DNA of 64,000 nt from Owenia fusiformis (lineage: Eukaryota). The stretch covers positions 23,126,001 to 23,190,000 of the forward strand of contig CAIIXF020000001.1 of NCBI GenBank assembly GCA_903813345.2, written 5' to 3'. The translations under genes were made by a program, and so were the position numbers. The notes under the pieces are model-generated. The model did not search any database and was not told the DNA's origin. It was given only the letters and a program-made list of their open reading frames with translations. Of this stretch, positions 1,962 to 49,500 are shown piece by piece (position 1 is the first letter of the stretch; the number at the start of each line of letters is the position of its first letter).

Positions 1962-4567
1962 AACAGCGGGAAATATTTTCTTGACAATATTCAGAAAAAA
2001 TGTGTATTTGCGTGACATATTCTAACGCAAAAAATGGGCGTGACGAATTTAATTAATTTCCTCAGCAAATGCATGACAAATTCAACACCCACAGCAAAAT
2101 TAACTCATTTATAAAAACCATGCAAAGTTCATTCAAATCCATGCAAAGTCTATGCATCATCCATTCAAATCCATGCAAAGCACGTAATCCACATGCAAAG
2201 TCCATGCAGGGTGTGAAAAATATTCCATGCGATGTTCATGCAGATGCATGCAAAATCAGGGGTTTATATGAAAACCATGCAATCCACATGCAAAGTTTAT
2301 GCTGGCTGCGAGAAATATTGTTAATGAGGTCCATGCAATGTCTATGCAAAATTGAAGAAAGTAGATTTTTGAGAAAATGATTCAACGTAACCTCAAATTA
2401 AAGATATGTGTAAGTACTAAACCAATGCCATACCACAAGTGTGAGGTCATATATTTTTCAAGACCATTGTCATACCAGAAAGCTGAAAATCCAAAAATTG
2501 TTACATCACAAAAGTCATAATTTTGGGGGCATTCTCATACAGGATCCTAAAATGTGAGTCCATAGCCATACCAAATGTCAAAAAATACCCCATGTGCGCC
2601 AAGGATCCCCGTCAAGGTTTATTTACAGTGAACCCCCGGGCCCGGGAGTACCTGCCACTATTCCATTCATATTTAAATGAGTTGGTCATAAAATAGTAGG
2701 TTAATCTGGTAGCCGCTAGCTGTTAGTTGCATTCGTGAAGGCAAGTTTATATTTTACTCTTACTTCAAAAGGTGGTATTATTAATCTATTGTCACCTGTT
2801 TTAACTGAACCTAAACTTATATACAAGTATTTCATAACTTCAAAATATTTTCAAAATAATAACCTTTAACATGTAATAGCAGATAGACTTGAAATTACAC
2901 AATCATACAGTATTAAATCAACTTTGTTTATAATATCTTATATTTTGCTTTATTCAACTAAAATTGTTCAACTTAAAGTAATCATATCAAAAATGTCATA
3001 AAAACAAGACATGGATGTCAATGATGCAATTCTTATATAATCTGGAACAATATCCAATCATCACATCTGTTTGTGACTTTGTTTCACTTAAGTCTGAAAT
3101 TGTTTGCAATGACCTAAATGTCTTGCTAATTCTGCTGTGAGATTGTCTTTTAATGAGTATACCGTTTCTACATTTCTCATTTATTAAATTATAATGTAAT
3201 CCATTTTATTATGACACTAATCCATTTTTATTTAAGATTTAAATTCTAAAAATACACTTCATTATGAAATAATATTAATTCTAAAAGATACATTGTTGCT
3301 TCATTGTAAATCAGTAACTTTTCAGAAAAAAACTATTATCAAGAATGGAATTACATGGCCAAATACTATGTTCTAATATTCTGATGAAATGATTTTTACT
3401 CCTAGTCATCCCCTCCCTGTTTTAGATTTGAATGGGACTACTACACTACATAGGTCTACATGACCACAGTAAATGATTAAATCCATTCTGATACTCATCA
3501 CATTCTGCCTTCAATGAGAAATACGAAGGCCATGATTTCTCATGATGGGTTTTCAAAGAAAAATAAATTTTCAAAGTTGATAAACTCTTTTCAAAACCAC
3601 ACTTTTAGATGTAATTTTATATGTAGATTTCAAATATGACACCAGTTTGACTGAATTGTGAATTTTTAAAGACGTAAATCAAGATTATTTCTACTCGCAT
3701 CTAGAATATTGACTTTATGATTCTCTGATCTTCGAATGACAATGCCACCATATAGCATATACTGGTAGGATTCATGCATTCAGTTTCTAGTGCCTTCATT
3801 CCTGCGACATACAAGTAGAACAATGGACCTGGCAAATGCCATATCCCACAAACTCTCTTCCCCCATTTGTAAAATCTTTATTAGCTAAGTTAGGATGTTC
3901 AAACTTTTCCCAAATACTGTATAACATGTATCAAATCCGGATGCTTTATTTTCCGAATTGGATTAAAATTGTTATTGCCGAATAAAAGTTTGCCGACCTG
4001 ACACCCCTAAATGTAAACACCCCTAATATAATTTTTATTTACAAATGAATTTTAATCACCTTCATTTGACTGACTCAGAAAACCTGACATCCTGACATTA
4101 TGAGTGACAATTTGAGTGATTTATTCACATAATACCCGCATTCGATAGACTCAGAAAATTAATACCAGGGTTAAAAACTTTTAATATTGGGATTAAAAAC
4201 TTTTAACACTGGGATTTCCAAAGCACTTGCATACAATAAGATCTTCTGACATTTTAACTCTTTAACATGACAATCCTTTTAATATTTTATAGATTTAACT
4301 GCATGCATTTTAACTGCAACATTTTTATTATTAAATTTTTATTGTAACTTTATGCTGGGGAATAAAGCTTCGATTTTATCGTTGATACTCGTTCGAAAAT
4401 TACCCTATTACAGTAAGTTGACGCACGTTAGACAACTACCATATTATCGCCCACTAAGATCGATCTTCAATTACTAATTATATTTCCGAATTTTATGTTG
4501 CCGTTTCTGTTTTACATTCGGCAATCGGCAACTTTATATCCACAGCAATATTTCATGTTATACAGTA

Positions 4568-5488
4568 CAGTAAAACCTGTGTTAGTGAACACATCTCTCT
4601 AGTGAACACCTTTCAACAGTGAACATTTTTTTTTCGGCAAAACCTTTTTCCCCCATTGACTCCCATGTTAAAGTACAATCCTATAGTGAACACCTACCTA
4701 CTGTGAACAGTGAACATTAAATCTTGGCAAATTTGATTGAATTATCCTGTCTCTAGTGAACATTGAATCTGTTACATAAGATTTCTTGCGGATTTTCTGC
4801 AACTGCCTTATCAGAGTTAAGCAGTTAATGTTTATATTACCTGTGAAAAATAATTATTAAAAGGTCAATTTGAGATTTTGATCTCTTGTATTGAAACAGG
4901 TGTGACTAATTATAATTCTTAGTAAGCTTTGTTTTTGTAAGGCAGGATATGTGTTTAGCAGTGTCTAGAAGCATTGATTGCTTTAATTAGAGATAATCTG
5001 GTTAACTATTATTATCTCTATCTGCTAAGTCCCAACTAAATCTTTTTCTCATCTCCATCATTTTAAAAACCAGATAAGGTTAAAATTATAAGATCATTCT
5101 TAACTGACTCCATTTTGTAGTTTAATTAATTCAATCAAGTCTTTCAACTGACTCAAATGTGTTAAGAATTCCACTATTTAAAGAATTATGAAAAGATTAA
5201 AATTTGACAATAAAAGGATGAACCATTCAGGCAGTCTAGAATAAGTAAGTTTGTATAACACAACAAAAAAAACAAAAATTTGTTGCAAGTGTCATGGGTT
5301 ATCATAGGTATAAAATACAAATTAAATCAGTTATTCCCTCCTCTATTATTTAGGCTCGTTTAATAACTGGTCTCTTAAATATAATATGGCAAAATGCCGC
5401 GAAATCAAATCCTTGCTGTAGTGAACACCTACCAATAGTGAACATTTTTCTTCGGCAAAAAAATGTTCACTATACACAGGTTTTACTG
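4568..5488. mobile_element. Tc1/mariner (pogo/Tigger-like) MITE
   Basis: TIRs CAGTAAAACCTGTGT..AGTGAACA, TA on both flanks, internal repeats of AGTGAACA. Confidence 0.85.
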
Positions 5489-6801
5489 TATACTTCATTC
5501 AATCATCTACTATATGGTGTAATAACTTTAACAACTATGATGATGTAAGATTGTGTAATTTTATTCTAAAGACAACACATATGGAAGAATTAGTGATTCT
5601 CAGTTTATATCATAAGGTTTTGTCTCTTGGAGCTGATGATTGCATCATAATAAGTTAATTACCCTACATACAATTCTGCTGATTTTTCAATAACATTTTC
5701 TATATCTCTAGCTGCAGCTACTAAGAATTTGAAGATCCTACCTGATGCCTTTAAAAAGTTTTAGAGAAAAAACTTAACTGTGGGGGCCTTTTGTACACCC
5801 TCCCCCTCATATGGTTGTAAATTGATTAGATATGTGAAATCAATTGAAATGAGAAATTGAAATAAGTATTAACCTGACTCAGCAATTAAATATGGCAGTA
5901 TTAATTTTTATAAGGATCAAGATTCAGTTCAAAGTTAATCTTGTAAATGCGACATGAAATCCCTAAAACCATGTAAAAGCAAGACATCTTAAAACTAGAT
6001 TCTTAAAATCCCTACTTATGGAACATTGTAAATCCTGCTGACCTTGCAGAAAAAATTGCTCAAGGTCACATAACTGCATATTTGTCAATTCTTCATCAGA
6101 ACACATCAGACAAACATATTATGCAATAAAACATAGTATATACTCCAAAACAACCCCTCTCTAGACTAAAAACAGCCTCAAATGAAGGATATGTGTAAAT
6201 ACTAGACCAATGCCATACCACAAGTGTGAGGTAACATATTTTCCACGACCATTCCCATACTAGAAAGTGGAAAAATCCTACCATTGCCATTCCTCAAAAG
6301 TCATAATGTTGGGGCATCCTCATCAGATCCTAAAATTTGGGTCCACTGCCATACCAAATGTCAAACAAGTACAAGGCATTAACAAAATGTCACCACCTAG
6401 TTCAAAACAATATAATGAGTTCAATCTTTTCAGATTTGAATTTCTGAGAACTTGTAGATGATAAAGCAAAAAATCAATTGGTCAATTTTGAAGCAAGTTG
6501 AAAAAAGACCTTTTTTGAACATAAGAAGGTCATTGAAGGTGAAATCTTAAATTTATAGTCAGATTTGAACTTCTGAGAACTTGGAGATGATTTTGGTAAA
6601 AAATTGGTCAATTTGAAGCAAGATGAAAAATACCTTTTTGATCTTTTTTGACCTTGAAAAGGTCATTGAATTTTAAAATTATAGTCAGATTTGAACTTTT
6701 AAGTCTTGTATATGGGCTCTAAACAGTATTTGTTAAGTTGTTGGAAGTTGGAAGAATTTGTTACATAATTTATAATAGTTCATTTATTTGATTGATCTTA
6801 C

Positions 6802-6829
6802 CTTTGCAATTGCAAGCTGCTCACCAAGC
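6802..6829 (-). CDS. GPLD1: GPLD1 coding exon 7 (28-nt microexon)
   Basis: (R)LGEQLAIAK, matching the YGEMLAVSK segment of mammalian GPLD1; tacag acceptor, gtaag donor; phases bridge exons 6 and 8 exactly. Confidence 0.88.
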
Positions 6830-7639
6830 CTGTAATGAAAATAGTTGAACAAATGTACATGTACAGATAAACATATAAATCAATATACTTTTAAAATGAA
6901 TCTGATGACAGAGGACAATGCAATCACATCATCAGAGGTGAGGCAAATTTTAGCTGGAAGGCGAGGCAAAGCCAAAGAGGTAATCATATGGGATGAAATT
7001 CTCACATTTTCTAAAAATGTTTTCCATAAAATAGCCAAGATAATGTTTGGATGTGGGCATAATTCAGTTTATTAAAATAAACAAGCAATTACGAGCCTCG
7101 TTATGGGCCCCATACGGACAAGTACAGTGCTTGAAAATTACAAGCCATTACGGGCCTTGTTATGGGCATCGCACAGGCATTAAAGTACAAGGCTTGAAAA
7201 TTATGAGCTATTATGGGCCTCATAACAGGCACTGTACGAGCAAGTTCGGGGTTCGAAAATTATGATTTATTACAGGGCTCGTTATGGGAACCGTACAGTC
7301 AAGTAAATTACGGACTATTACAGGCCGTGTAATTACAAGCTCTCAGGAGGCTCAAAAATTACAAGCAATTACGAGACTCTTAACGAGGCCCATACGATGT
7401 TGTACAGGGCCCGTTGACTCAACGAGCTCCATAAGGGCTTGTACGGGGTCCAATGTAATTTGCCTGTGTACTTTGTACATTTTACAACCCATCTGCTCAA
7501 AGAGTCAGCAAAACCTATGCAAGAATAACTAACTCATCTCAAACAATGGAGGCTGATCCCCATGATTCCACACATGAAGTATTGGCATTGAATAACATGT
7601 GTTTAGTAAGCTTCGCATGATAATAAAATCCCAGTATAC

Positions 7640-16116: not shown

Positions 16117-16820
16117 TTAACAATTAAAAGTAAATAACATGATATTGTTCGTCATAAATACCATTTTTTAATCGTTAGTTAGCAGCCTTCTTATCAAATT
16201 ATATACACAATTGTAATTCAATACACCAATGAAACTTAAAGGGAATAAATTAATGGACCAATTTTCTCAAAAGAGAATAAATTATCTGACCTAATTTCCA
16301 ACAATATTGTGGCGCGAAATGCAGATGTGATATCACACGGATATGCGTGAGATAAACGATATCACACGCATATGAGTTTGATAAACGATTTTCTGGAAAA
16401 TATCACACGGTTTTCAATAATATCAGAAATATCAATAGCTGTTATTGTACAGATAACACATTAATCGTGGGATAATTTAAAATATCAAACACTGATATTG
16501 ATTTTTAAACAAATATTACTATAATTGAATAAAAACTTTGAATGTTTAAATTGAAAAGTGTAATATCAAACAAGAAATACAATATACAAATTATCAAACA
16601 TAGAATTGAAAAAATCAAAATTGTAAAAGAATTTGAATTGATAAGTGGAAATTCAAATAGCAAAATTGAAATACCGAACATAAAATTGAAGAAATTGAAT
16701 AAAGACGCTAAAAAGCCACAAAATACATCAGAAACAAAAAGAACATTTGATTTATTCAGACTAAAACTGTAATCCAGTTTTATCATTTCAGTATCCTTAG
16801 AAGCAGTACAGTATATAGAG

Positions 16821-16880
16821 ATGAATATACAAGTATATCTACTCCTGGTGTTCATTGCTCTAACGGCAACTTTAGTGTTG
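16821..16880 (+). CDS. Nested gene exon 2: signal peptide MNIQVYLLLVFIALTATLVL
   Basis: Acceptor catttcag at 16791, ATG at 16821, 20 mostly hydrophobic codons, phase-0 donor TTG|GTAAGA. Confidence 0.75.
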
Positions 16881-16932
16881 GTAAGATATTTCAATTGATG
16901 GCATAATCTTACAAAATATCTAAGCATAATGC

Positions 16933-18101
16933 AAGAAAACTCATCCGAAGACATCTCATCCCAAGACAACTCATCCCAAGACAACTCATCCGAAGACATC
17001 TCATCCCAAGACAACTCATCCCAAGACAACTCATTCCAAGACATCTCATCCCACGACAACTCATCCCAAGACAACTCCTTCTCAGACATCTCATCCCAAA
17101 ACAACTCATCCCAAGACATCTCACCCAAAGACAACTGATCCCATGACATGTCATCCCAAGACAACTCATCTGGAGACATCTCATCCCAAGACAACTCATC
17201 TGGAGACATCTCATCCCAAGGTAACTCATCCGAAGACAACTTATCCCCAAGACAACTCATCCCAAGACATCTCATCCCAAGACAACTCATTCATTCCAAG
17301 ACATCTCATCCCACGACAACTTATCCCAAGACAACTCCTTCCAAGAAATCTCATACCAAAACAACTCATCCCAAGACATCTCACCCCAAGACAACTCATC
17401 TCATGACATCTCATCCCAAGACAACTCATCTGGAGACATCTCATCCCAAGACAACTCGTTCCAAGACATCTCATCCCGGGATATCTCATCTATTCCCAAG
17501 ACATCTCATCCCAAAACAACTCATCCCAAGACATCTCACCCCAAGACAACTCACCCCATGACATCTCATCCCAAGACATCTCATCTCAAGACAACTCATC
17601 TGGAGACATCTCATCCCAAGGCAACTCATCCGAAGACATTTCATCCAAAGACATCTCATCCTAAGACAACTCATCCCATGACATCTCATCCCAAGACAAC
17701 TCATCTGGAGACATCTCATCCCAAGGCAACTCATCCGAAGACATTTCATCCAAAGACATCTCATCCTAAGACAACTCATCCCAAGACATATCATCCTAAG
17801 ACAACTCATCCGAAGACATCTCATCCCAAGACAACTCATACCAAGACAACTCATCTCATCCCGAGACATCTCATCCCAAGACAACTCATCTCATCCCAAG
17901 ACAACTTATCCCAAAACAACTCATCCCAAGACATCTCATCCAAAGACAACTCATCCCAAGACATCTCATCTCAAGACAACTCATCCGAAGATAATTCATC
18001 CCAAGACAACTCATCCAAAGACATCTCATCCCAAGACAACTCATCCCAAGACATCTCATTCCAAGACAACTCATCTCATCCCAAGACAACTCATCCCAAG
18101 A
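16933..18101 (+). repeat. 15-bp minisatellite (AGACA[A/T]CTCATCCCA)n, about 1.17 kb
   Basis: Directly visible tandem array; source of the spurious repetitive ORFs in several frames. Confidence 0.95.
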
Positions 18102-18376
18102 GATGAAGTGAGACTAACTTTATCAATAATATTAGTTGTTAAAAATACAGGGTGATCTGAAAAACAGAAATCACATATCTTACTCATTGATAAATGTCAC
18201 TTTTATATCAGCCTCTCAATTAATATGCTAAATTGAATTTTTCTATTTGGTCAAGTTTGTTGTGAACATGAACATTAACTCTGGGGATAATAATATGACT
18301 AACGCCAAAGAAAGAAATGAAAGAAACATTTATTTGTCTAATGATCAAGTAATATTTTCTAATTCTTTTCAAACAG

Positions 18377-18886
18377 TCTGACAGTAGCGGAAGCAGTAGC
18401 AGGAGTAAAAAAATTCGTGAGAATAGGAAATGTGGGGAAATAAAGTATGACTTCTTCAAACCAAAGAAAGGGGAATGTGAGGAAGGAACAGAATGCAAGT
18501 GTGATGAGCAAAAATCCAAAAAGATCAAGTGTTACTGCAGAGCAGTGCCTGAAACAACAACCTCTGATGCAGCAACAACAACCTCTGATCTAGCAATAAC
18601 AACCTCTGAAACTGATCTAGCAATAACAACCTCTGAAACTGATCTACAGGTAGCAATAACAACCTCTGAAACTGATCTAGCAATAACAACCTCTGATCTA
18701 GCAATAACAACCTCTGATCCAGCAACAACAACCTCTGATCCAGCAACAACAACCTCTGATCCAGCAACAACAACCTCTGATCCAGCAACAACAACCTCTG
18801 ATCTAGCAACAACAACCTCTGATCCAGCAACATCGACTTCTGATCCAGCAACAACAGTACCTGATTGTGATTCTGGGGTAACTTGA
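18377..18886 (+). CDS. Nested gene terminal exon A: Cys-rich module + Thr-rich mucin-like repeat
   Basis: Acceptor ttttcaaacag, phase 0; SDSSGSSSRSKKIRENRKCGEIKYDFFKPKKGECEEGTECKCDEQKSKKIKCYCRAVPETTTSD...(ATTTSDP)n...VPDCDSGVT*; ATTAAA at 18996. Confidence 0.75.
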   Translation, partial: SDSSGSSSRSKKIRENRKCGEIKYDFFKPKKGECEEGTECKCDEQKSKKIKCYCRAVPETTTSDAATTTSDLAITTSETDLAITTSETDLQVAITTSETDLAITTSDLAITTSDPATTTSDPATTTSDPATTTSDPATTTSDLATTTSDPATSTSDPATTVPDCDSGVT

Positions 18887-19204
18887 TATATATTTTGCAT
18901 ATACTTATGACATGGACAGAATAGCAAGAAAATATTTTTAGTATATTCTGTTTATTGATTATTACAGACCAGTAAAATGCTAAATGAATGTAAACATTAA
19001 AAACCATGAATCAAAAACACGGTGTAGCTGCTTGGTATTGCATTTACTATCTTGTTACATTTTGCATAATGATAATAACAGCCCATGCATCTTTTAGTCC
19101 ACATTCTTATCCCTGGGATTCATTGTATGCTCTGCGACAGAGACACAAAAGAAACATTTAGTTATTGAATTCTTAACTTATATTTTCTAATTGTTTTCAA
19201 ACAG

Positions 19205-28068: not shown

Positions 28069-29334
28069 TAGAAACCAAATTCATGTACTCTAATCTAAGG
28101 ACCCTATTATTATTAAGGCTCTGAATAATTGTTATCTGAAATTGGCAAAGAAATGCAAATTTCATTATCATCAGATTTGCGCCTGTGTTAAACCAGAGGA
28201 ACTCCAATATTTACTACACATATCGTTAGTACCTCAGTGTAAATACTCACATCTGATTGGTCAATTAGTGGTCAACATTTTTGCCTGTACCCCACCTGTG
28301 CATTTTTTATGGGATATCTTATTGACCGTGTATGTTACTGTTCTACACTTGTGAATTATGGGGAAAATGACGTCATAATATTTACTGAAAAAATGGATGG
28401 AAAGGATGTGCGTTGTACCACAATCCGTGCGTGTTGTATTGAAAACCATTACTGTATACCAACAGCCCGACACAATGACTTTGTGATGTAAAAAGGCTTG
28501 TAATGAAAGATGTATGATAAGAGTAGAAGAGTAGGATAAGTATTATTGAAAATCATGCACATTTAATCAGGAAGACCAGGCAAGAAATAGCAACAGAATA
28601 CTAATCAAGTATATGCTTCATCAAGGAAAGCAAACTCAAAACCGCAAACACCCTAAAATCACAGCCCAAGTCAAACCTTCATGTACAAGTTGTAAGTCTA
28701 CATGATCTATGACCGAATTTCCAGAGAACTTAATTTGTTCCATCTATATATGATTATTAAAACCAAATGCTGTGAGCTCTATTATCAACAAAGTTTTTAC
28801 TAAAAATTTCTTCCGCTGCGCCCTCTTCTCACATTTTGCCATAGGAATGATTGGGAGAAATAAAAAGAGCAAATGGCTTATTATTTAACAGAGAATTGAA
28901 TATGTCAATATTACACACAATAGGATAGTTTCTAAATAGAAGAAAAACCAATGAAATCTAGTGCTGCCATCTTTTATTCAGCTTTTAATTTGAGCTAGAG
29001 TTCCATTCACTTACATGTTAAAATCTTGGAAAAGTTGCTTAATTTCATGATTTATCAAAGGGTGTTAGTTGAATCTGTATAAAACTTGAATGATATACCA
29101 CATGATGACCATGTTTATGTACATGTTGTAAATGTTGGTTGACATACAAATAATCCAAGGTTTTAAAGAATTTTAGCATTGCATCTTTGAACATTTGGCC
29201 CAAGTTGTTTTAAATTGTCATAGAAAATTATTCAAATTACATAACTGTGTAAATCAAATCTATTATAGGAGAAAACATTTCACTGAATTCAAATATGCCA
29301 TTTAAAAGAAGGCAAAGTAAGTCATTAGAGGTCA

Positions 29335-32065
29335 GCTATGAGAAATACAGACTGGGAAAATATATTCCAAAATGAGCCAGATACCAACATCATTACCTTG
29401 AACTTTACCTCCAAACTTAAAGAACTTTATTCAACTTTTATTCCAAACAAAGTAATTACAATTAAATCTAACGATAAATTCTGGTTTAATGATGACATTA
29501 GAACTCAAGTTGACAAAAAGAAGCATCTCTATAGAAAAATGAAAAATAACCCCACTCTTGAAAATATAAATAAATATAAAAACCATGCCAAAAAAGTTGC
29601 TAACTTAATAGAAAATGCAAAAACAAAATCTGAAAAACAAGCTATTGATTCCATTTCTAAATTTAAAAAAAATGATAAAAAATACTGGTCAGTTATTCGT
29701 AGACTCTGTGGCAAGAAAAGAACTTGCTCATCAATTCCTTCTATTTTTGATAATAATGGTAATTTACATATGAAGAATGTCGACAAAGCAAATGCCTTTC
29801 TTAATTTCTTTTCTGATAAAAACCACACCTACGATTTACCCAATTCCATTCCAAACTTCCCTGATAGAACTAACTCTTTTCTTATTTCAATTCAAACGGA
29901 CCGAGAAGAGGTCATGAAGTTAATTTTAGATTTGGACATTCATAAAGCTACTGGCCCCGACCTTATTTCTAATCACATGTTAAAACTCACAGCTCATACT
30001 CTAGCCCAACCACTATCCACACTCTTCAACATCATGTTATCCAAAGGTGTATTCCCATCTACGTGGAAACTAGCAAATGTATGTCCTATATTCAAGAAAA
30101 ACGATAAATGTAACATTAACAACTATAGACCAATAGCCCTCTTGAGTACTATTTCTAAATTACTTGAAAAGATCATTGCAAATCGAATAACAAAACATCT
30201 CCTTTCTAATGACCTCCTTTTCAAATACCAATCTGGCTTCCTCCCTGGCCACAGCACTCAATCTCAACTAGCAGCAATTGAACATTACCTACAAGACAAT
30301 ATAAATAACAAGAAATCTGTAAAAACTATCTTTTTAGACATTGCTTCTGCATTTGACCGTGTCCCCCCACACTTTACTATTACACAAACTAAAAGCTTAT
30401 GGCATAAGGGGCATGCTACTCAAACTACTCAAAAATTACTTACTAGATCGCAGAATAAAGGTTAACATATCTGGCATATCTTCTAACATATCCGACCCAC
30501 ACTTTATCAACTGTGGCGTTCCCCAAGGCTCAATCATTGGTCCCATATTGTTCCTAGTATATATAAATGACTTACCTGATAACCTAGACTCCAAATGTTT
30601 CATATATGCTGACGACACCTCAATATATTTCCCCTTTGACCCAAATAGCCCTAGTGACATTGATCAGACTGTTGCTCGTAATCTCCTTGCTATTGAAAAT
30701 TGGTCACTTACTTGGAAATTAACATTTAAACCTGAAAAAAGCTTTGAACTTATTTTCCACAGTTCCAGAACCAATAATGTAAATATAAATCACTCAAACC
30801 TTTTCAACCAAGTTATTCAGAGAGTACCAAGTCACAAACATCTGGGATATGTCTTTGACCAACTCCTATCAAATAAAGACCACATCTTAGGTCTTCGAAA
30901 TAAAATTACCAAACTCACAAATCCCCTTAAAGCCCTCAAATCTAAACTGACATCTTCTCACTTGGAAACACTTTTTAAGTCCTACATTCTCCCACACTTT
31001 GACAATGGATCACTTCTTTTTGACTCATCTTCCAAGTATTTACTTGGATATCTAAATAGTGCCTACTATCAATGTGCTCTTATCTGTTCAGGTTGTCTAC
31101 CAGGAACCAGCACAACTAAAGTTCTTAACATATTAAATTGGCCAAGCCTAGAAACTAGACGAAAACTCCAAATTAACAACTTCATGTTCAATGTTAGTAA
31201 AGGTACATCTCCACCATACATAAACGATATTTTTGATAAGTTTCGATGTGATACTCAAAGAGAACTACGACATACTCGCCCCTTTAGGCTACCCAACCAT
31301 GCCACTACTAAATACCTGAACTCCTGCATACCAAATGCAATCTCCCATTGGCTATCTGTACCAATGAATATTCAAACAAGTAAAACCCTCATTGCCTTTA
31401 AGAACAACAATCGCAAGCACCTTCTCAACCTTGACATAAACATAATCCCTACCTCAATGCTAAATATTTCTAGAAATGAAGAAACACTTATTAATAGGTT
31501 TAGGGTAGACCTGCTCTTCAGGGCTCAACTCTTTGCCCACAATTACACCTTCATCAGCTCTCCTAATTGTTCTTGTGGTCTACCCGAAACTCCAAAACAC
31601 TTCTTTTTTCACTGCCCTCTGAATGAAAATGCAAGAACCATCTTTTTCAATACTCTCTATACTGAAACTCCTTTGATCCCCACTAACCAATCCACACTTT
31701 TAGAATACCTAGCCTTTGGCAATCATAATTTTAGCAAGGATGAAAACACAAAAATCTTTACTCTGACTTCTGCCTTTATTAAGAAATGGCTTACCCCATA
31801 TTGAACAAGACTGAAGAAGACTATCTTAGAACCTATTGTACCCTGCCTTGTCTTGCAAATATAAATTACATTGTCCCTCTGCCCTGTATTTCCCCCAGTC
31901 CCAGCCCAGCTCAGACCCCCCCCCCTTCCACCCCTCTTCATCTTTTTCCCCGCTTGGCTAGAGTGCTTATAATGCCAAAATGGTGATTAGCACTTGAATA
32001 TGCTCTCTTGTATTTACTATATTACCCCATGTACATCTATTTTTTATAAATAAATAAATAAAAAA
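29335..32065 (+). mobile_element. 5'-truncated non-LTR retrotransposon (CR1/L2-group LINE) in GPLD1 intron 1
   Basis: RT motifs KATGPD, NYRPIALL, FLDIASAFDRV, GVPQGS, YADD; C-terminal CSCG...ET..H....CP; (AAAT)n/A tail; TSD AGAGGTCA at 29327-29334 and 32066-32073; endonuclease domain absent. Confidence 0.93.
29338..31804 (+). pseudogene. LINE ORF2 reverse transcriptase, split by one +1 frameshift near 30365
   Basis: ORFs 29338..30465 and 30341..31804 join as ...AFDRVPHTLLLHKL... if one C is removed from the C6 run at 30363-30368. Confidence 0.88.
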
Positions 32066-42821: not shown

Positions 42822-43078
42822 TGAGCATCAATGTGGACACTATATATATGGATAAATATGCAACATGAGAATCAATGTGGGACATTGGGTCAGTAACATG
42901 AGAATCAATGTGGGACTGTATATTTGTATGCAAACACAAGAATCAATGTGGGACCATGGATTAATATGTAACATAAGAATCAATGTGGGACCATGGATTT
43001 TTGTGTAACATGAGAATCAAGTGGGACCATGGATTATTGTGTAACATGAGAATCAAGTGGGACCATAGGTTAACATGT
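42822..43078 (+). repeat. 36-37-bp tandem repeat
   Basis: AACATGAGAATCAATGTGGGACCATGGATT.. about 6 copies. Confidence 0.85.
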
Positions 43079-43612
43079 AATGGCATTTATTGGCAAGTCA
43101 TACCATATTCTTCATATTTGACTTCAGTATATAGGCTACTGCACAAACTCCTAAATAGGAACACCTCAGCAACTGAAGACTTTAGGCTGGTCTATAGCTA
43201 AGTTAGCATTCATATAGGCTTACTGAGATGCTCCGATCAAGACAAAAGCTCCTTGCAAAAGCTCCATGCAAAAGCTCCTTGCAGTGACTCCAGACAATAG
43301 CTCCATGCAATTAGCTTACTTCAATACATCTAACATACTGTAAATTAGTAGATAGTTTATTCTGCCACCCCTCCCCTCGAGACCCCATCACCTAGACTAC
43401 AAAGACTAATATCATGTGCCACACCCTATTCTCTATGGGCTGTGGCCATTAAGTCATCAATTGACCCCAACTTTATTTTCCAGAATTCTAAAATTTTCAG
43501 CACTACTTTGAAAAGTTGTGGCCATCTCTAACTACAATGAATGCACTTCTTAGGATCACTACTCAATGAATAATTTATATTTACAGTATGTCAAAATAAA
43601 TGCTATATTCTA

Positions 43613-43848
43613 CAGGGTGTCAAATAAATATGTTCACTCCCCCTTAATTTCAAAAGTACATGTATGAACTTTTGTGCGTAAATGGGCATCTAGTTGAGCT
43701 GTTCATCTGAAATTTTTTTCAAGTTGCTCCATGAAGCGTAGTTTTAATATGCTGAAAAGCAATTTAGATTTTATGCAGACAAAAAAGTTAGTCAACATTA
43801 TGTGGATGTTAAAGCAAATGGGGGAGAACATATTTATTTGACACCCTG
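43613..43848. mobile_element. Mariner-type MITE
   Basis: TA|CAGGGTGTCAAATAAATATGTTC ... GAACATATTTATTTGACACCCTG|TA. Confidence 0.88.
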
Positions 43849-44423
43849 TAGTAATATTTCTGAGTCCTGGCTTAAAACAGATCTAAATGTGGCACATGAC
43901 AAGTGTCTATCAGACTTAATCACTGCATCTTTCAAATTCTGATTTCATTTCTAAAATGGATGATTACATGTAAATAGTCTACTTTAAATCCTATGTACAT
44001 AATTCTATATACTGAGTGTTCCAGAAGACATTGAACAGTTTGTTTATTTCACAAAAAGGTGCAATAAATCAAATGAAATGGAACACTTTGATTGTACATG
44101 CATATATGCTAATTCGTTGTTCAGTTTCTTAACACAGTAAAAATAGCCTTTAACAATAAGTAAGCATATAGTATACTAAAGTAAGCCTAAAACTCCATAT
44201 ATGTAACTGCAACATTATGTAACATTTGGAACATTCAGTATACAGAATAAAAAAAGTCAACAAAGACACATTATAAATTATTGTGCAAACAAAAACTGCA
44301 CTAAGTTCTGTATATCATGGAACGTCTTATAATTGTAATTGTCTCATAGAACCATAGTTCTAACTTACATCATGGCAAATGATAAACTTGGCAATACCTT
44401 GGTCCTGGTACAGTACATTCAAT

Positions 44424-44720
44424 CTGGAGTAGAGGGTAACCTGGAATACAGGGTGACCTGGAGTAGAGGATGACCTTAAATACAGGGTGACCTGGGGTAG
44501 AGGGTGACCTGGAATACAGGGTGACCTGGGGTAGAGGGTGACCTAAAGTACAGGGTGACCTGGAGTAGAAGTTGACCTAGAATACAGGGTGACCTGGAGT
44601 ATAGGTTGAGAAGGTAACCGAGACTAAAGGTACAGTGTAATTCAGAGTACAGGATAGCCCAGATTACAGGATAACCAAGAATACATGGACAAGGTAACCC
44701 TGGAGTTCAGGTATAGCCCA
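44424..44720. repeat. 17-bp tandem repeat (alternating 34-bp dimer) in the probable Kv-beta 3' UTR
   Basis: CTGGAGTAGAGGGTGAC / CTGGAATACAGGGTGAC units, degenerating rightwards. Confidence 0.85.
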
Positions 44721-44853
44721 AGCTGCATGCAATTTGATGTTCTTAATTAATGTTGTAAAAATAAGCTGCTTCAACAAATGACTTCCCTGTGAAAAATCTT
44801 ATTCAGGACACCAAAGTGATATTGCATATAGTTCAACCATTTGCCAATAGATG

Positions 44854-44964
44854 TCATTGGATTGTACACCAAGATGATGATTCCTCATTATCATCTTTAG
44901 GTTCGGGTTTAACAACTGTTTGTTGGTTCATGTCAACTATAGTTTCTTTAGGTGTGGGCCCTAG
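44854..44964 (-). CDS. Putative stop-codon readthrough extension of Kv-beta (36 aa, ends in CaaX CTIQ)
   Basis: TGA CTA G context; in-frame LGPTPKETIVDMNQQTVVKPEPKDDNEESSSWCTIQ, then TGA at 44856-44854. Confidence 0.65.
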   Translation of the reverse strand, partial: LGPTPKETIVDMNQQTVVKPEPKDDNEESSSWCTIQ

Positions 44965-45057
44965 TCACCTTGCTATATGCTCTCGTATCTTCACAGGTTT
45001 GTTTCCTAAGATCTTGTCAAGCTCTGCCATTATGGCAGGTGTAAGTTTTGAAACATA
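44965..45057 (-). CDS. KCNAB2: Kv-beta last coding exon, YVSKLTPAIMAELDKILGNKPVKIREHIAR*
   Basis: ttcag acceptor; TGA at 44967-44965, where Kv-beta proteins normally end. Confidence 0.92.
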   Translation of the reverse strand, partial: YVSKLTPAIMAELDKILGNKPVKIREHIAR

Positions 45058-45443
45058 CTGAAATGACAATCGGAAGTATATTACATATAATCAAGCACAG
45101 GCCTTTAGTGACTTGTCGAAATTGTACTGAATTATTTAGTGAGTATAAAATACATGTCAAGGATGAGGTACCTTAAATAACTCTCTGGATCATAAATGGA
45201 GGTCTGCGTCCAGTATCTCATTTTGTACCAGACGAAAATACTGGACGCATTTCTACCCCCTGAAATTGTTTCTACCAGAAAAATATGTAAAGAAATCAAA
45301 CATGTCATCGAAAAGGAAGTCATTTAAATTTAAAAAATAGACTTCAGTGAGATTTCAAAGCAATAAACATGTAGCAAAGCCCTGTATTAATCAATGTCAT
45401 TTTACAATATCTGAAAGATTTGTTGATAAAAAAAAAGATGTAC

Positions 45444-45532
45444 CTGAATTGACTGCATATTTTCGTAGAGCTGGTCCACATTAGAAGCTCCTAGCAGAAC
45501 ACAGTGGACATTGTCATTCCTCAGACACCAAG
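45444..45532 (-). CDS. KCNAB2: Kv-beta exon, [29 protein letters not shown]
   Basis: 89 nt; tttag acceptor, gtaca donor. Confidence 0.95.
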
Positions 45533-46399
45533 CTAAAGATATTTAAACATAGGATATATTAAATCAAATATTATATTTAAATCACCCCCCTGGCCTGTAT
45601 CTCTCTTGCCCCCTTTCTCAAACAAATGATGTTGACCAACAGTGCATGTTCTAATTTTTGAAATGGTGTTACAGGTAATACAAGAATCTATATTGTTATG
45701 TACGATATTTATGTTGCCCTTTGTGCTTTCTGTAAGGAGGATTAAATCCAATTTTATTTGAGTTATACATGTAAGGGACTGTAAAACAGTCATGCTTTCA
45801 TTTTGCTAAATGTGGATAAAAATATTTTCGATAATATGTCATAACACAAATGGGCAGATATATAAGGGTTATGTACTGAGAGGTTTTTGATACAGGGTTT
45901 ATCCCAAGGGAAATATCAAATATCTCCCGAGGGACTGCAGTGAGCACATATGTATTTATGGAACTATTGTACATTTAAAAGGGACTAGGTCAACAGAAAG
46001 ATGGCAGCACAGTGGGCTGTCTTGCAGAGTACTGCTGCCATCTTTCTTTGACCTTTGTGTCTATATTTACAACCACTGTGTCTATCAGTACTCATATGTG
46101 AATTCAATGACACCCTGGGGGTTTTACTGTATACATGCTGTATACAAACTATGGTGGGGGTCCTAGGCTGAACCCTCAGATATCAGAGTATGTTCCCATA
46201 CCAATCTGTCAAATGTTTTACCAACCAAATTGTATTAAATCACACCCTAATGCCATACCAAATGTCCACCTCCCAGGAAAATATTTATATTCATAAGTCA
46301 TATTTTATTGCCATACCGGATGTTAAAAAATTTACCCCTCATGGCCGAGGATCCTGTCAATTTTTAAGTGAACCCCCAAGGAGTGGTACGTGTACTTAC

Positions 46400-46520: not shown

Positions 46521-49500
46521 CTGTGTGGACAACTAAAGTATAATATCTGGGGGTGAGAAACAATGAACAGAACAGCCAGCCAGGCACAGCCAATACATAC
46601 AATGTACAATACAGCAAATATGTACAGCAAAACTTCAAAGTTGAACACCTGTTTCGGATAAAAAAAAAGGTTTTACAAGGAATAACATTTTACATGCTCT
46701 ACAAAAACAAGGGGTCGTCTAAAAGTCACACTAAATTGTATCTTTTATCCACTTTTCTAAATGCTAAACAAGAAACTTTAATGAACATCTTTATGTCTCT
46801 GGCGAAACAAACCACCTTCCAAACCCTTGTTTATGAAACATTCTTTTGGAAGTTTAATTTCAAAAAAGGTACACTAAATTTTTAGTTTTTTTAAATGGTG
46901 TTTAGTCACCATATTACCAATAATACAGCAACCATAGAAAGACAAACAGGTGTTCAACTTTTCAGCTTCATACTGACAATCCTATATTATATATATACTT
47001 TGCATGGTCACATGACACATCCACTTTTAACATCCGAGGGCCCCACATACAACATTTGTGCTTGATACATACAGCATCTCATTTTGATTGAACCACAATT
47101 TGCAAATTTTTCTCTCATGCACTCAAGGGAATTTAGCAGATGCATCATGGGTTTGATCAAGATAAAACTGAAATCCATTACATAATTGATTTAAGTCTGA
47201 GAGTTTAGAGATGATTATTTTGATCGAGCCTTTGGAAACGAGAGAAAACGCCACAGTTGTGGTTTAAGGGCCCCTTATACACACAACAATGTAGAAGGTA
47301 TTGCACAGTTGGAAAAGGCACAGTAGGGCACTACATATAAAGTCACATGTACATGTATGCACAATATGCAATCGGGATATAACGGGTGAACCATTATAGA
47401 AGTGAAGGAGAGAGGATCTAACCTCTATACTCAACCGGAATAATTGAAAAAACAAGATGGCGATTTTCTCCCATTGGCCCAATTATTGCATAATATTTCA
47501 ATTTTTTTTCGTTCCATTAAAGTTTGAAAAATTACTAAATGATATTAGATCTCTCAAGTTTTAATGTTAAAACTGCGTCAATCAAAGTGACCTATGACAT
47601 ATACATGTAACTCATTAAAGTTAGTGTTTTCCTCAAATTTTGCCCTTGGTGGTTTTTCAATTAAGGGCATATAAGAACAACAATTGTATTTGTACATTAA
47701 AAGTCAACATTGTGATGCTATATTGATCCTACAAGCTGGAAAGCTGGATTTGGTATAATTTTCATCCATGGAACCAATCAGACAATTGCTTTTATTTATA
47801 TTTCTAAATAATAGATATTAGGAATTAAAAGTGGAGCCAAAGACTGGAGTTGAGAGTAGCTTGTAAATTGTCATACTTATTTCTGATAACATGGATTTTA
47901 ATTTTAATGCATTTGAAAATTTCTACATCTTAAATCATATCCATATATGATTAGATATCTCGATTCTTTTTTCAAATACCAAAATTAAGATTGCACTGGC
48001 AAACGATGTCATGGAATTTGAAAATATTGCATTTTACATTAGTCTCTGGTCTTTGCTGCCACTTTAAATTACAGCTCCATGGAGGAAACAGCTCCATTGA
48101 GGAAATAACCTTAGATAAAATGTCCTCAATGGATCACATTTATATCTTATCTAATTACAAGTACCACAGAACACAAGAATGATCCTGTGAGTGCAAAAAG
48201 CGAGGTTTCATAGCTGGCGTTAATTGCATCAGAGTATTAATAATTGACACAAGGGAAAATTCAGACACAGTTACCATACATGGTCAACAGCCGCAATAAC
48301 CATATATGGCCAACAGCCGTGCAATGTCAAATAATTCCAATAAAGGTGAATGTATGAATGAGGCATACATGTAGCTCCAAGATGGAAAGACTTATAATGG
48401 CCATAAATTAAGAATCTAATAGGAAAACCATCCAAGGAATAAAACATTCATTAAAGTGCTACAAATGTAAGTCAGATACTGCAAACACAATTAGTAGCTC
48501 ATATCTCATATTCTCTTGATCTTTACATCAAACACAGTTTTTCATGCATCGATCTATCAATGTATCTAATCTATCAAAATGAATATCAGATGTTGAGAAA
48601 AATCAATGACTTACGCCCCTAAATCATCATTTTGTTAATAAAACACTTCAGATTGATGATCATACGTTGCTTATTTCCTGTTTTTTACTTTATCAATGTA
48701 CAGCACATGTCAGAATCTATGTAATTAATATCGAAAAGGAACGAACTGTTCCATAAATCAACAATGAGGATTTATTTTCCAATATTATTTTACCAAATTG
48801 ATTTCTCATTTAGATTGTTTTCGGCATTATTTTTTAACCAAAATTTCATATTCCAATCAGTCTGGTTGAACAGGTATAATGTCTGTAAGATCGAAAAATG
48901 TGTTTAATGTTAGGTTTAGAAAGATATGATCGACTAATTTAGGGAGTGCTACATATAGAGGTTATTTACTCAGAGGGATAGAATATGAGTTTTATACGAA
49001 GTGCTTGGTATGATAAAACCCATATTTAATTCCCAAACGGGAGATACATGTTTTATACCATGATATTGGCACCATTATACTACAATAAAATTGTAAGAAA
49101 ATGAAAAATGTTGAAAAATGTAACTTTTTGAGAAATGAAATTTTTGAAAAAATAAAATTTAAAAAATGACATTTTTGAAAAATGATTTAAATTTTTGAAA
49201 AATGGAACTTTTTGGAACAATTTTGTCAATTATATTTCTTTAATGTAATGAAGTACTGTAGTGTCATGGTATAAATATGTTTATCTGGCACAGTCCTTTT
49301 ATCATATAAAATGTAAAGCTTTGTTATATCCAGATATATGATGCTAGTAAATATACATAATGCTAGACAGTGCAGGTGCATAATTCAAACAAGACACAGC
49401 AGTATGTTAATTATAAAGGATACAAAAGATTTAGCAAAATACAAACAATTAAATCAGGGAATACATATTATTATTATTATTAAACAAGATATTTGAAAAA

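Follow-up and report, generated by a model that had tools for sequence, protein, structure and literature searches.

The locus described here raises the question of whether a stop codon can hide a signal for lipid anchoring. The window (the whole stretch of DNA that was analysed, 64,000 nucleotides, positions 23,126,001 to 23,190,000 of contig CAIIXF020000001.1 in assembly GCA_903813345.2) comes from the annelid Owenia fusiformis and carries the 3′ part of a Kv-beta gene on its minus strand. Across the annotated stop codon of this gene the minus strand reads GCA AGG TGA CTA GGG, that is, a UGA-CUAG context, as in the genes AQP4, OPRK1, OPRL1 and MAPK10. An earlier reading of the DNA letters alone (the original prediction) had noted this context, the open frame of 36 codons behind it and its C-T-I-Q end, and had proposed that readthrough could produce a farnesylated Kv-beta. 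All three features were found in the sequence as described. After comparison with other species we lean, with reserve, towards the view that the extension would be a conserved programmed stop-codon readthrough exposing a farnesyltransferase-type CaaX box, and the original interpretation as a whole appears partly supported.

The Kv-beta gene and the frame behind its stop codon

Twelve coding exons of the gene were located by exact match to the annotated protein (longest isoform, residue 122 onward), and all 11 introns between them are of the GT...AG type. A tblastn exon map, which had recovered three exons only, was superseded by this exact-match mapping. The last exon matches the C-terminus of the O. 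fusiformis protein P0002 at 100% identity, and its C-terminal residues are ...HIAR. Concerning the family, the Kv-beta protein matches the Pfam profile Aldo_ket_red (PF00248, E = 1.2e-59, residues 128-435, profile positions 1-289 of 291) and the solved Kv-beta2 chains 7ej1_A and 2a79_A (E = 3.7e-169, residues 116-445). Compared with solved Kv-beta2, the active-site motifs, including VFAN.PD, are retained, the catalytic residues within them being presumably those generally assigned. Judged by its sequence, the gene is a true Kv-beta of O. fusiformis, in agreement with the identity that had been proposed for it.

All five annotated isoforms end at HIAR and differ only near the N-terminus. These isoforms (P0002 and P0122-P0125) have alternative N-termini, and directly ahead of the core some carry RRGFFR or a segment of 14 residues as an optional part; the exons for these variants are located past the window's end, above 57657. 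In addition, at 46521-46532 (minus strand) the annotated protein has four additional residues (LSTQ) at the exon start in comparison with Kv-beta2, where an alternative acceptor 12 nucleotides further into the exon is possible.

Regarding the extension itself, its sole Cys lies four residues before the second TGA. With Cys at -4, an aliphatic a2 residue and an X residue within the farnesyltransferase set, C-T-I-Q agrees with the CaaX rule, which is relevant only upon readthrough. Moreover, bulky hydrophobic residues are scarce in the extension, and only 2.3% of 701 open reading frames (ORFs) of 30-45 amino acids in the window are equally low.

Probable conservation in a distant spiralian

The evidence that carries this reading comes from a protein found in a HMMER search of 1.84 billion representative proteins, in which the query was built as last exon-X-extension-X and five matches were obtained at E-values up to 0.001. 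One of them, P0130, is an unnamed ORF of 166 amino acids on a Logan contig of 1,656 nucleotides, and it is alone in its cluster. The N-terminal part of P0130 is intron sequence (...LCLQ, with an acceptor-like end), and from the exon onward the translation is YVSKLTPALMGEIDKILGNKPAAKREVMTR-W-LDSRTPSASTSGPGHGSTSHPIKGTSSEVGGATCVIQ-W-... and continues. Its last exon shares 22 of 30 residues with that of Owenia (73%) and ends in ...VMTR, followed by W and then by L. The only two W residues of P0130 align exactly with the two TGA codons of Owenia. The simplest reading of both is that TGA was translated as Trp by the gene caller, presumably one using genetic code 4, such as Prodigal in metagenome mode. 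Calls of this kind are said to be present in the database.

The extension has 37 codons in P0130 and 36 in Owenia, a frame-preserving difference of one codon. Both extensions begin with Leu, and their second codons, for Gly in Owenia and for Asp in P0130, share an initial G, in keeping with CTAG. At the other end, CVIQ in P0130 corresponds to CTIQ in Owenia, and only the tolerant a1 position differs. The linkers between these two ends are unrelated; over the whole extension, 8 of 37 residues are identical, and the likeness ceases after the second stop. In both tails, bulky hydrophobic residues are unusually scarce.

A null expectation for this match was built from the window's own frames, where the frequencies are 2.5% for a length of 35-38 codons, 0.19% for a CaaX-type end and 8.8% for Leu as the first residue. 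The joint probability of length and CaaX-type end is 4.6e-5, and it falls to 4e-6 when the first Leu is included. Since P0130 was recovered via its exon, the CaaX box was not selected for. Furthermore, the P0130 exon is as distant from Owenia as it is from a bivalve, an abalone and a chiton, so neutral sites should be saturated and shared ancestry without selection cannot account for the match. In its predicted translation, P0130 shows the same architecture in a distant spiralian.

The other matches of the search were discarded: two were repeat proteins (P0126 and P0129), one was a garbled arthropod model (P0128), and one was an exon fragment of 33 amino acids ending at the stop (P0127).

A close relative and its transcripts

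A close relative (organism B) was represented by a run that is RNA, as shown by an exon-exon junction at 45533, where the penultimate exon is spliced to the exon upstream. An RNA contig of 262 nucleotides from this organism aligns ungapped on 44792-45046, running from the exon across the stop and all of the extension to 62 nucleotides past its end. Because the contig is unbroken through this interval, the main mRNA is unspliced at the donor-like sequence AAG/GTGACT (the slash marks the exon-intron boundary) and is not polyadenylated before 44854. The original prediction had named a constitutively used donor at this place and polyadenylation upstream of 44854 as outcomes that would speak against it; the transcripts extend past 44854 without splicing, in agreement with the common HIAR end of the Owenia isoforms.

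The comparison with relatives that had been suggested at the outset gave the predicted outcome in the two cases available. P0130 keeps the frame, the length to within one codon and a C-V-I-Q end, and in organism B TGACTAG is retained together with the frame and the CaaX box. The four differences listed for organism B are all synonymous changes at third positions, two in the coding exon and two in the extension, the latter being TCA>TCG (Ser) and, in the codon for position a1 of the CaaX box, ACA>ACG (Thr). This pattern weakly fits coding constraint.

Controls and further searches

As a control, 14 Kv-beta-like 3′ ends, which are arthropod-like and protist-like, were picked by eye from 95 matches to the pattern DKILGNKP in metagenome contigs. 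Neither TGA-CTAG nor an extension with Cys at -4 (CaaX-ended) was found in any of the 14. Five arthropod-like metagenome transcripts (L004, L018, L035, L066 and L074) read ...TR-W-A(A/T)TGGVPPC and then TAA; in these, the Arg codon is followed by a true TGG in place of the spiralian TGA, and the final residue is Cys.

Word-index protein searches with the exon and the extension returned Owenia's own protein only (one of four candidates), and the near-match mode gave no candidate. Alignment-based scans found no relatives in metagenome contigs (494 pattern matches), prokaryote genome contigs (88) or viral contigs (196).

Alternative explanations

The simplest alternative is chance, in which the 36-codon frame and CTIQ would be accidents of an ordinary 3′ untranslated region (UTR) and the leak at UGA-CUAG would be unselected noise. 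Its rates were taken from all six reading frames of the window. Of 8,035 stop-to-stop frames, 9.7% are at least 36 codons long, and the other two frames at the extension site are open as well (37 and 42 codons); long open frames are so common in the window that the openness of the extension alone is uninformative. TGA is followed by CTAG in 9 of 2,979 cases (0.30%), and farnesyltransferase-type ends (C-x-aliphatic-[SMQAC]) occur in 0.25-0.38% of 6,051 frames. For a gene with a TGA stop, the joint chance is about 1e-5. Although small per gene, such a value is attainable in a large scan and expected somewhere across many genomes, so the coincidence in a single genome is weak evidence and conservation in other species had to decide. 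As far as examined, conservation appears to decide for the extension. P0130, found by its exon and not by its CaaX box, has an extension in the same frame that differs in length by a single codon, begins with Leu and has C-x-I-Q before the second stop position, the linker being unrelated (about 5e-5 or less). On the side of chance stand the substitution pattern of organism B, which is not significant, and the annotated homologues, since none of the 120 best in the database has a C-x-x-x C-terminus. On balance, we regard chance as an unlikely explanation.

The alternative of a 5′ splice site has its own merits. According to it, AAG/GTGACT is a donor, the R-stop is read only when the site is left unspliced, a functional alternative C-terminus lies downstream, and the extension is intron or UTR. 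The sequence agrees with the consensus MAG/GTRAGT in 8 of 9 places, which also counts against readthrough, and it is as good as the weak donors that this gene uses, such as CAG/GTACAT and TGG/GTAGGG. Moreover, among the 120 best database homologues, many spiralians have short forms that end at the equivalent R and long forms that continue (for example Octopus X2/X3, oysters, Gigantopelta, Mytilus and Pecten/Argopecten), and the R-stop resembles an ancient exon boundary that is translated in frame (AG/GTRA giving Arg-stop). Against this, the five Owenia isoforms all end at HIAR, and the RNA contig of organism B is unbroken, with no joint or loose end at 44968/44969 among the rows listed. No credible downstream exon was found when 32 foreign C-terminal tails were searched against the window by tblastn (best E-value 0.03, in implausible places), and a donor leaves the in-frame CaaX box of P0130 unexplained. 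Splicing in place of readthrough thus seems quite improbable, but the two can coexist. Other kinds of recoding, namely selenocysteine insertion at the UGA or adenosine-to-inosine editing of UGA to UGG, are in our opinion very improbable. Selenoproteins, too, are marked by an in-frame UGA that is conserved together with the frame downstream of it, and P0130 has W at the stop position. Nevertheless, no selenocysteine insertion sequence (SECIS) family was present among seven weak Rfam matches (E up to 10, 43000-45200), and no structure that could guide editing was found after the stop (z = 0.00). Furthermore, the listed differences of the organism B contig include no change at 44965, and P0130 includes intron sequence and hence comes from DNA or unspliced RNA.

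Several further points weigh against readthrough with a farnesylation signal. In organism B, the probability that both changes in the extension are synonymous by chance is 0.05-0.12, three of the four listed changes are CA/CG differences, and the contig has six differences in total, of which only four are listed. The comparison covers one distant and one close species only, and the reading of W as TGA in P0130 rests on the positions and on the presumed code-4 gene calling. The two raw RNA runs X19 and X20 have a depth of 0-2 on the whole gene, which is too low to judge splicing or expression level, and they contain no read on the extension. The same lack of RNA structure 3′ of the stop that disfavours editing also counts here, and the efficiency known for UGA-CUAG comes from mammalian cells, not from annelids. 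Finally, no second membrane signal was found in the extension, which has a single Cys and no K/R cluster, and the residues preceding the CaaX box are acidic or Ser. Such a signal commonly accompanies stable binding to the plasma membrane, though it is no defining trait of farnesylated CaaX proteins. The original prediction had already described the linker as acidic and without a polybasic second anchor, as it indeed is; with neither a polybasic stretch nor a second Cys, a single farnesyl would bind membranes weakly. With these points counted, conserved readthrough towards a farnesylation signal is still the reading that we favour.

The original prediction overlooked that the position of the R-stop coincides with what appears to be an alternative splice junction in other spiralians. 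In the spiralian homologues P0005-P0050, the short and long isoforms diverge at the terminal Arg that corresponds to Owenia R449. Several of the long tails are Cys-rich, for example ...KVCRCYQACMSQS and ...FFQCISTSQS, which hints at other lipid-anchoring tails obtained via splicing. A micro-intron within the Owenia extension was also considered and rejected: GTGACTAG is only 8 nucleotides long, the longer GT...AG spans lack a pyrimidine tract, and the organism B contig is unspliced.

Proposed mechanism

In human reporter assays, the two TGA CTAG contexts, LDHB and MDH1, gave 1.55% and 2.91% readthrough, and 16 other constructs gave 0.10-0.66% (reporter data of PMC4359377). If annelid ribosomes act like human ones, a few percent of Kv-beta chains would have the tail. 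According to this proposal, a few percent of ribosomes would decode the UGA via a near-cognate tRNA and proceed to the second UGA, and about 36 residues would be added to the minor Kv-beta isoform as a flexible, hydrophilic tail. Farnesyltransferase would then modify the terminal CaaX box, which would be followed by the usual cleavage of -aaX and methylation.

The specificity of the enzyme is consistent with this step. Among the substrates tested with the plant farnesyltransferase, CVIQ was the best and beat CVIM, the a1 position was tolerant, and CVIQ was a poor substrate for the plant geranylgeranyltransferase I (substrate data of PMC3017772). These data bear out the assignment of a CaaX box with X=Q to farnesyltransferase, and by analogy with the plant enzyme C-T-I-Q and C-V-I-Q would both fit its specificity.

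The farnesyl group could serve as a weak membrane anchor for Kv-beta tetramers with at least one long subunit and, as the original prediction proposed, might bring them near lipid-derived aldehyde substrates. If readthrough affected 1.5-3% of subunits, the share of tetramers with one or more long subunits would be about 6-11%, a figure that is arithmetic only. Membrane binding would be weak unless the tetramer, or a channel that keeps the subunit at the membrane, contributed to it. The length of the tail may suffice for tethering a subunit that sits beneath the channel's T1 domain, and the kept length of the extension suggests such a role. A broader version of this idea is that an old device, common to spiralians, exposes a farnesylation signal on a flexible, length-conserved tether by readthrough of Kv-beta and anchors to the membrane a fixed small share of the tetramers of this channel-bound NADPH oxidoreductase. 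We put this forward tentatively, as something possible rather than probable.

Other features of the window

The features of the 3′ end of the gene are collected in Table 1.

Table 1. Positions of the features at the 3′ end of the Kv-beta gene, in window coordinates (a slash marks a splice boundary)
Feature	Position	Strand	Details and evidence
Penultimate Kv-beta coding exon	45444..45532	-	Donor CAG/GTACAT, phase 0; exact match to P0125 and splice-site search
Last Kv-beta coding exon, 30 codons, YVSKLTPAIMAELDKILGNKPVKIREHIAR	44968..45057	-	Acceptor tttcag/TAT; exon map agrees
Donor-like nonamer AAG/GTGACT over the Arg codon and the stop	44963..44971	-	Phase 2; last exon base would be 44969
Annotated stop TGA, proposed readthrough site	44965..44967	-	5/5 annotated isoforms stop here
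CTAG directly 3′ of the stop (+4 to +7), UGA-CUAG context	44961..44964	-	Sequence
In-frame extension of 36 codons, LGPTPKETIVDMNQQTVVKPEPKDDNEESSSWCTIQ, hydrophilic, linker-like	44857..44964	-	Reading-frame translation; aligned with P0130
CaaX box codons TGT ACA ATC CAA (C-T-I-Q)	44857..44868	-	C-V-I-Q in P0130; ACG (Thr) at a1 in organism B
Second in-frame stop TGA, closes the extension	44854..44856	-	W of P0130 at the matching place
Further 3′ UTR	44620..44853	-	Organism B RNA contig to 44792; one raw RNA read on 44620-44722
Tandem repeat of 17/34 nucleotides in the 3′ UTR, 5.5-10.9 copies, 76-88% matches	44424-44609	- (gene strand)	Repeat search
Candidate AATAAA	44048-44043	-	Candidate only

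The last intron contains short high-copy repeats at 45181-45263 and 45331-45365. In run X1, which is DNA (its reads cover introns), the word depth is 2,246-7,548 on the former and about 104 on the latter, compared with about 15 nearby. RNA reads with unlike flanks also fall on these repeats. The same DNA run has an insertion of 24 nucleotides behind 45086 and three single-nucleotide polymorphisms at 45099-45107, and it shows no difference in 44734-45085.

Outside the gene, two overlapping long ORFs with RVT_1 domains (E = 2.3e-15 and 1.2e-14) are located at 29329-31804 on the plus strand, and from their sequence they look like the remnant of a frameshifted non-LTR retrotransposon. At 16505-19010, long low-complexity repeat ORFs (SWDELSWDEMS.., HPKTTHPKTS.., TTSDPATTTSD..) are present on both strands; being open on both, they are probably minisatellite DNA rather than genes.

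Comparison with known systems

Concerning novelty, no paper on readthrough of the KCNAB/Hyperkinetic stop was found in main texts, and supplementary Drosophila lists may name Hyperkinetic. The literature searched contained no validated case of readthrough-exposed prenylation and no mention of CTIQ. The claim that no such Kv-beta has been described therefore stands, but the idea of prenylation exposed by readthrough is not itself new, as it has already been predicted for Syx17 and MT1C. In the literature searched, a lipidation signal exposed by readthrough is so far a matter of predictions only, and if such a case were retained in distantly related animals, lipid anchoring would join the functions that recoding can turn on. 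If the broader version with a device common to spiralians were true, it would be the first natural conserved readthrough used to turn on protein lipidation. Kv-beta would gain a second, genetically fixed route to the membrane beside S-acylation, and a simple handle would be available for probing the effect of membrane proximity on the redox sensing of the subunit. In addition, gene calls on eukaryotic contigs that take TGA as Trp can expose readthrough extensions that are hidden in normal protein databases.

The class of mechanism is that of mammalian LDHB and MDH1, for which readthrough exposing PTS1 is already established. The account of these enzymes in PMC4359377 supports the precedent that the original prediction had invoked. 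The likeness lies in the UGA followed by CUAG, the short extension and the terminal targeting signal hidden behind the stop, as well as in the redirection of a minor isoform of a soluble oxidoreductase, which for Owenia is the proposed outcome. They differ in the signal, which is PTS1 there and a CaaX lipidation box in Owenia, and in the extension, which in Owenia is longer (36 codons) and known from sequence.

Closer in the kind of signal are Drosophila Syx17, whose readthrough tail is listed with 'Farnesyltransferase signal' and a PhyloCSF score of 290.83 (Table 2 of PMC3840789), and Arabidopsis MT1C, whose readthrough tail ends in CVLC with predicted prenylation (bioRxiv 10.1101/2021.11.09.467898). 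These are other proteins in other lineages, and the prenylation is given as predicted in the entries cited.

With respect to Kv-beta proteins, the spiralian alternative C-terminal exons share the place of the junction, and their long forms add 12-40 residues past the terminal R. Unlike the Owenia extension, these tails are spliced and none is CaaX-ended, and no such splice is annotated or seen in Owenia. On the other hand, mammalian Kv-beta2.1 is S-acylated, and the lipid on its C-terminal cysteines gives membrane and raft localisation independently of the alpha subunit, as reported in PMC8994742. There, the lipid is a reversible palmitate on the core residues C301/C311 of the normal protein, whereas in Owenia it would be a farnesyl on a recoded tail.
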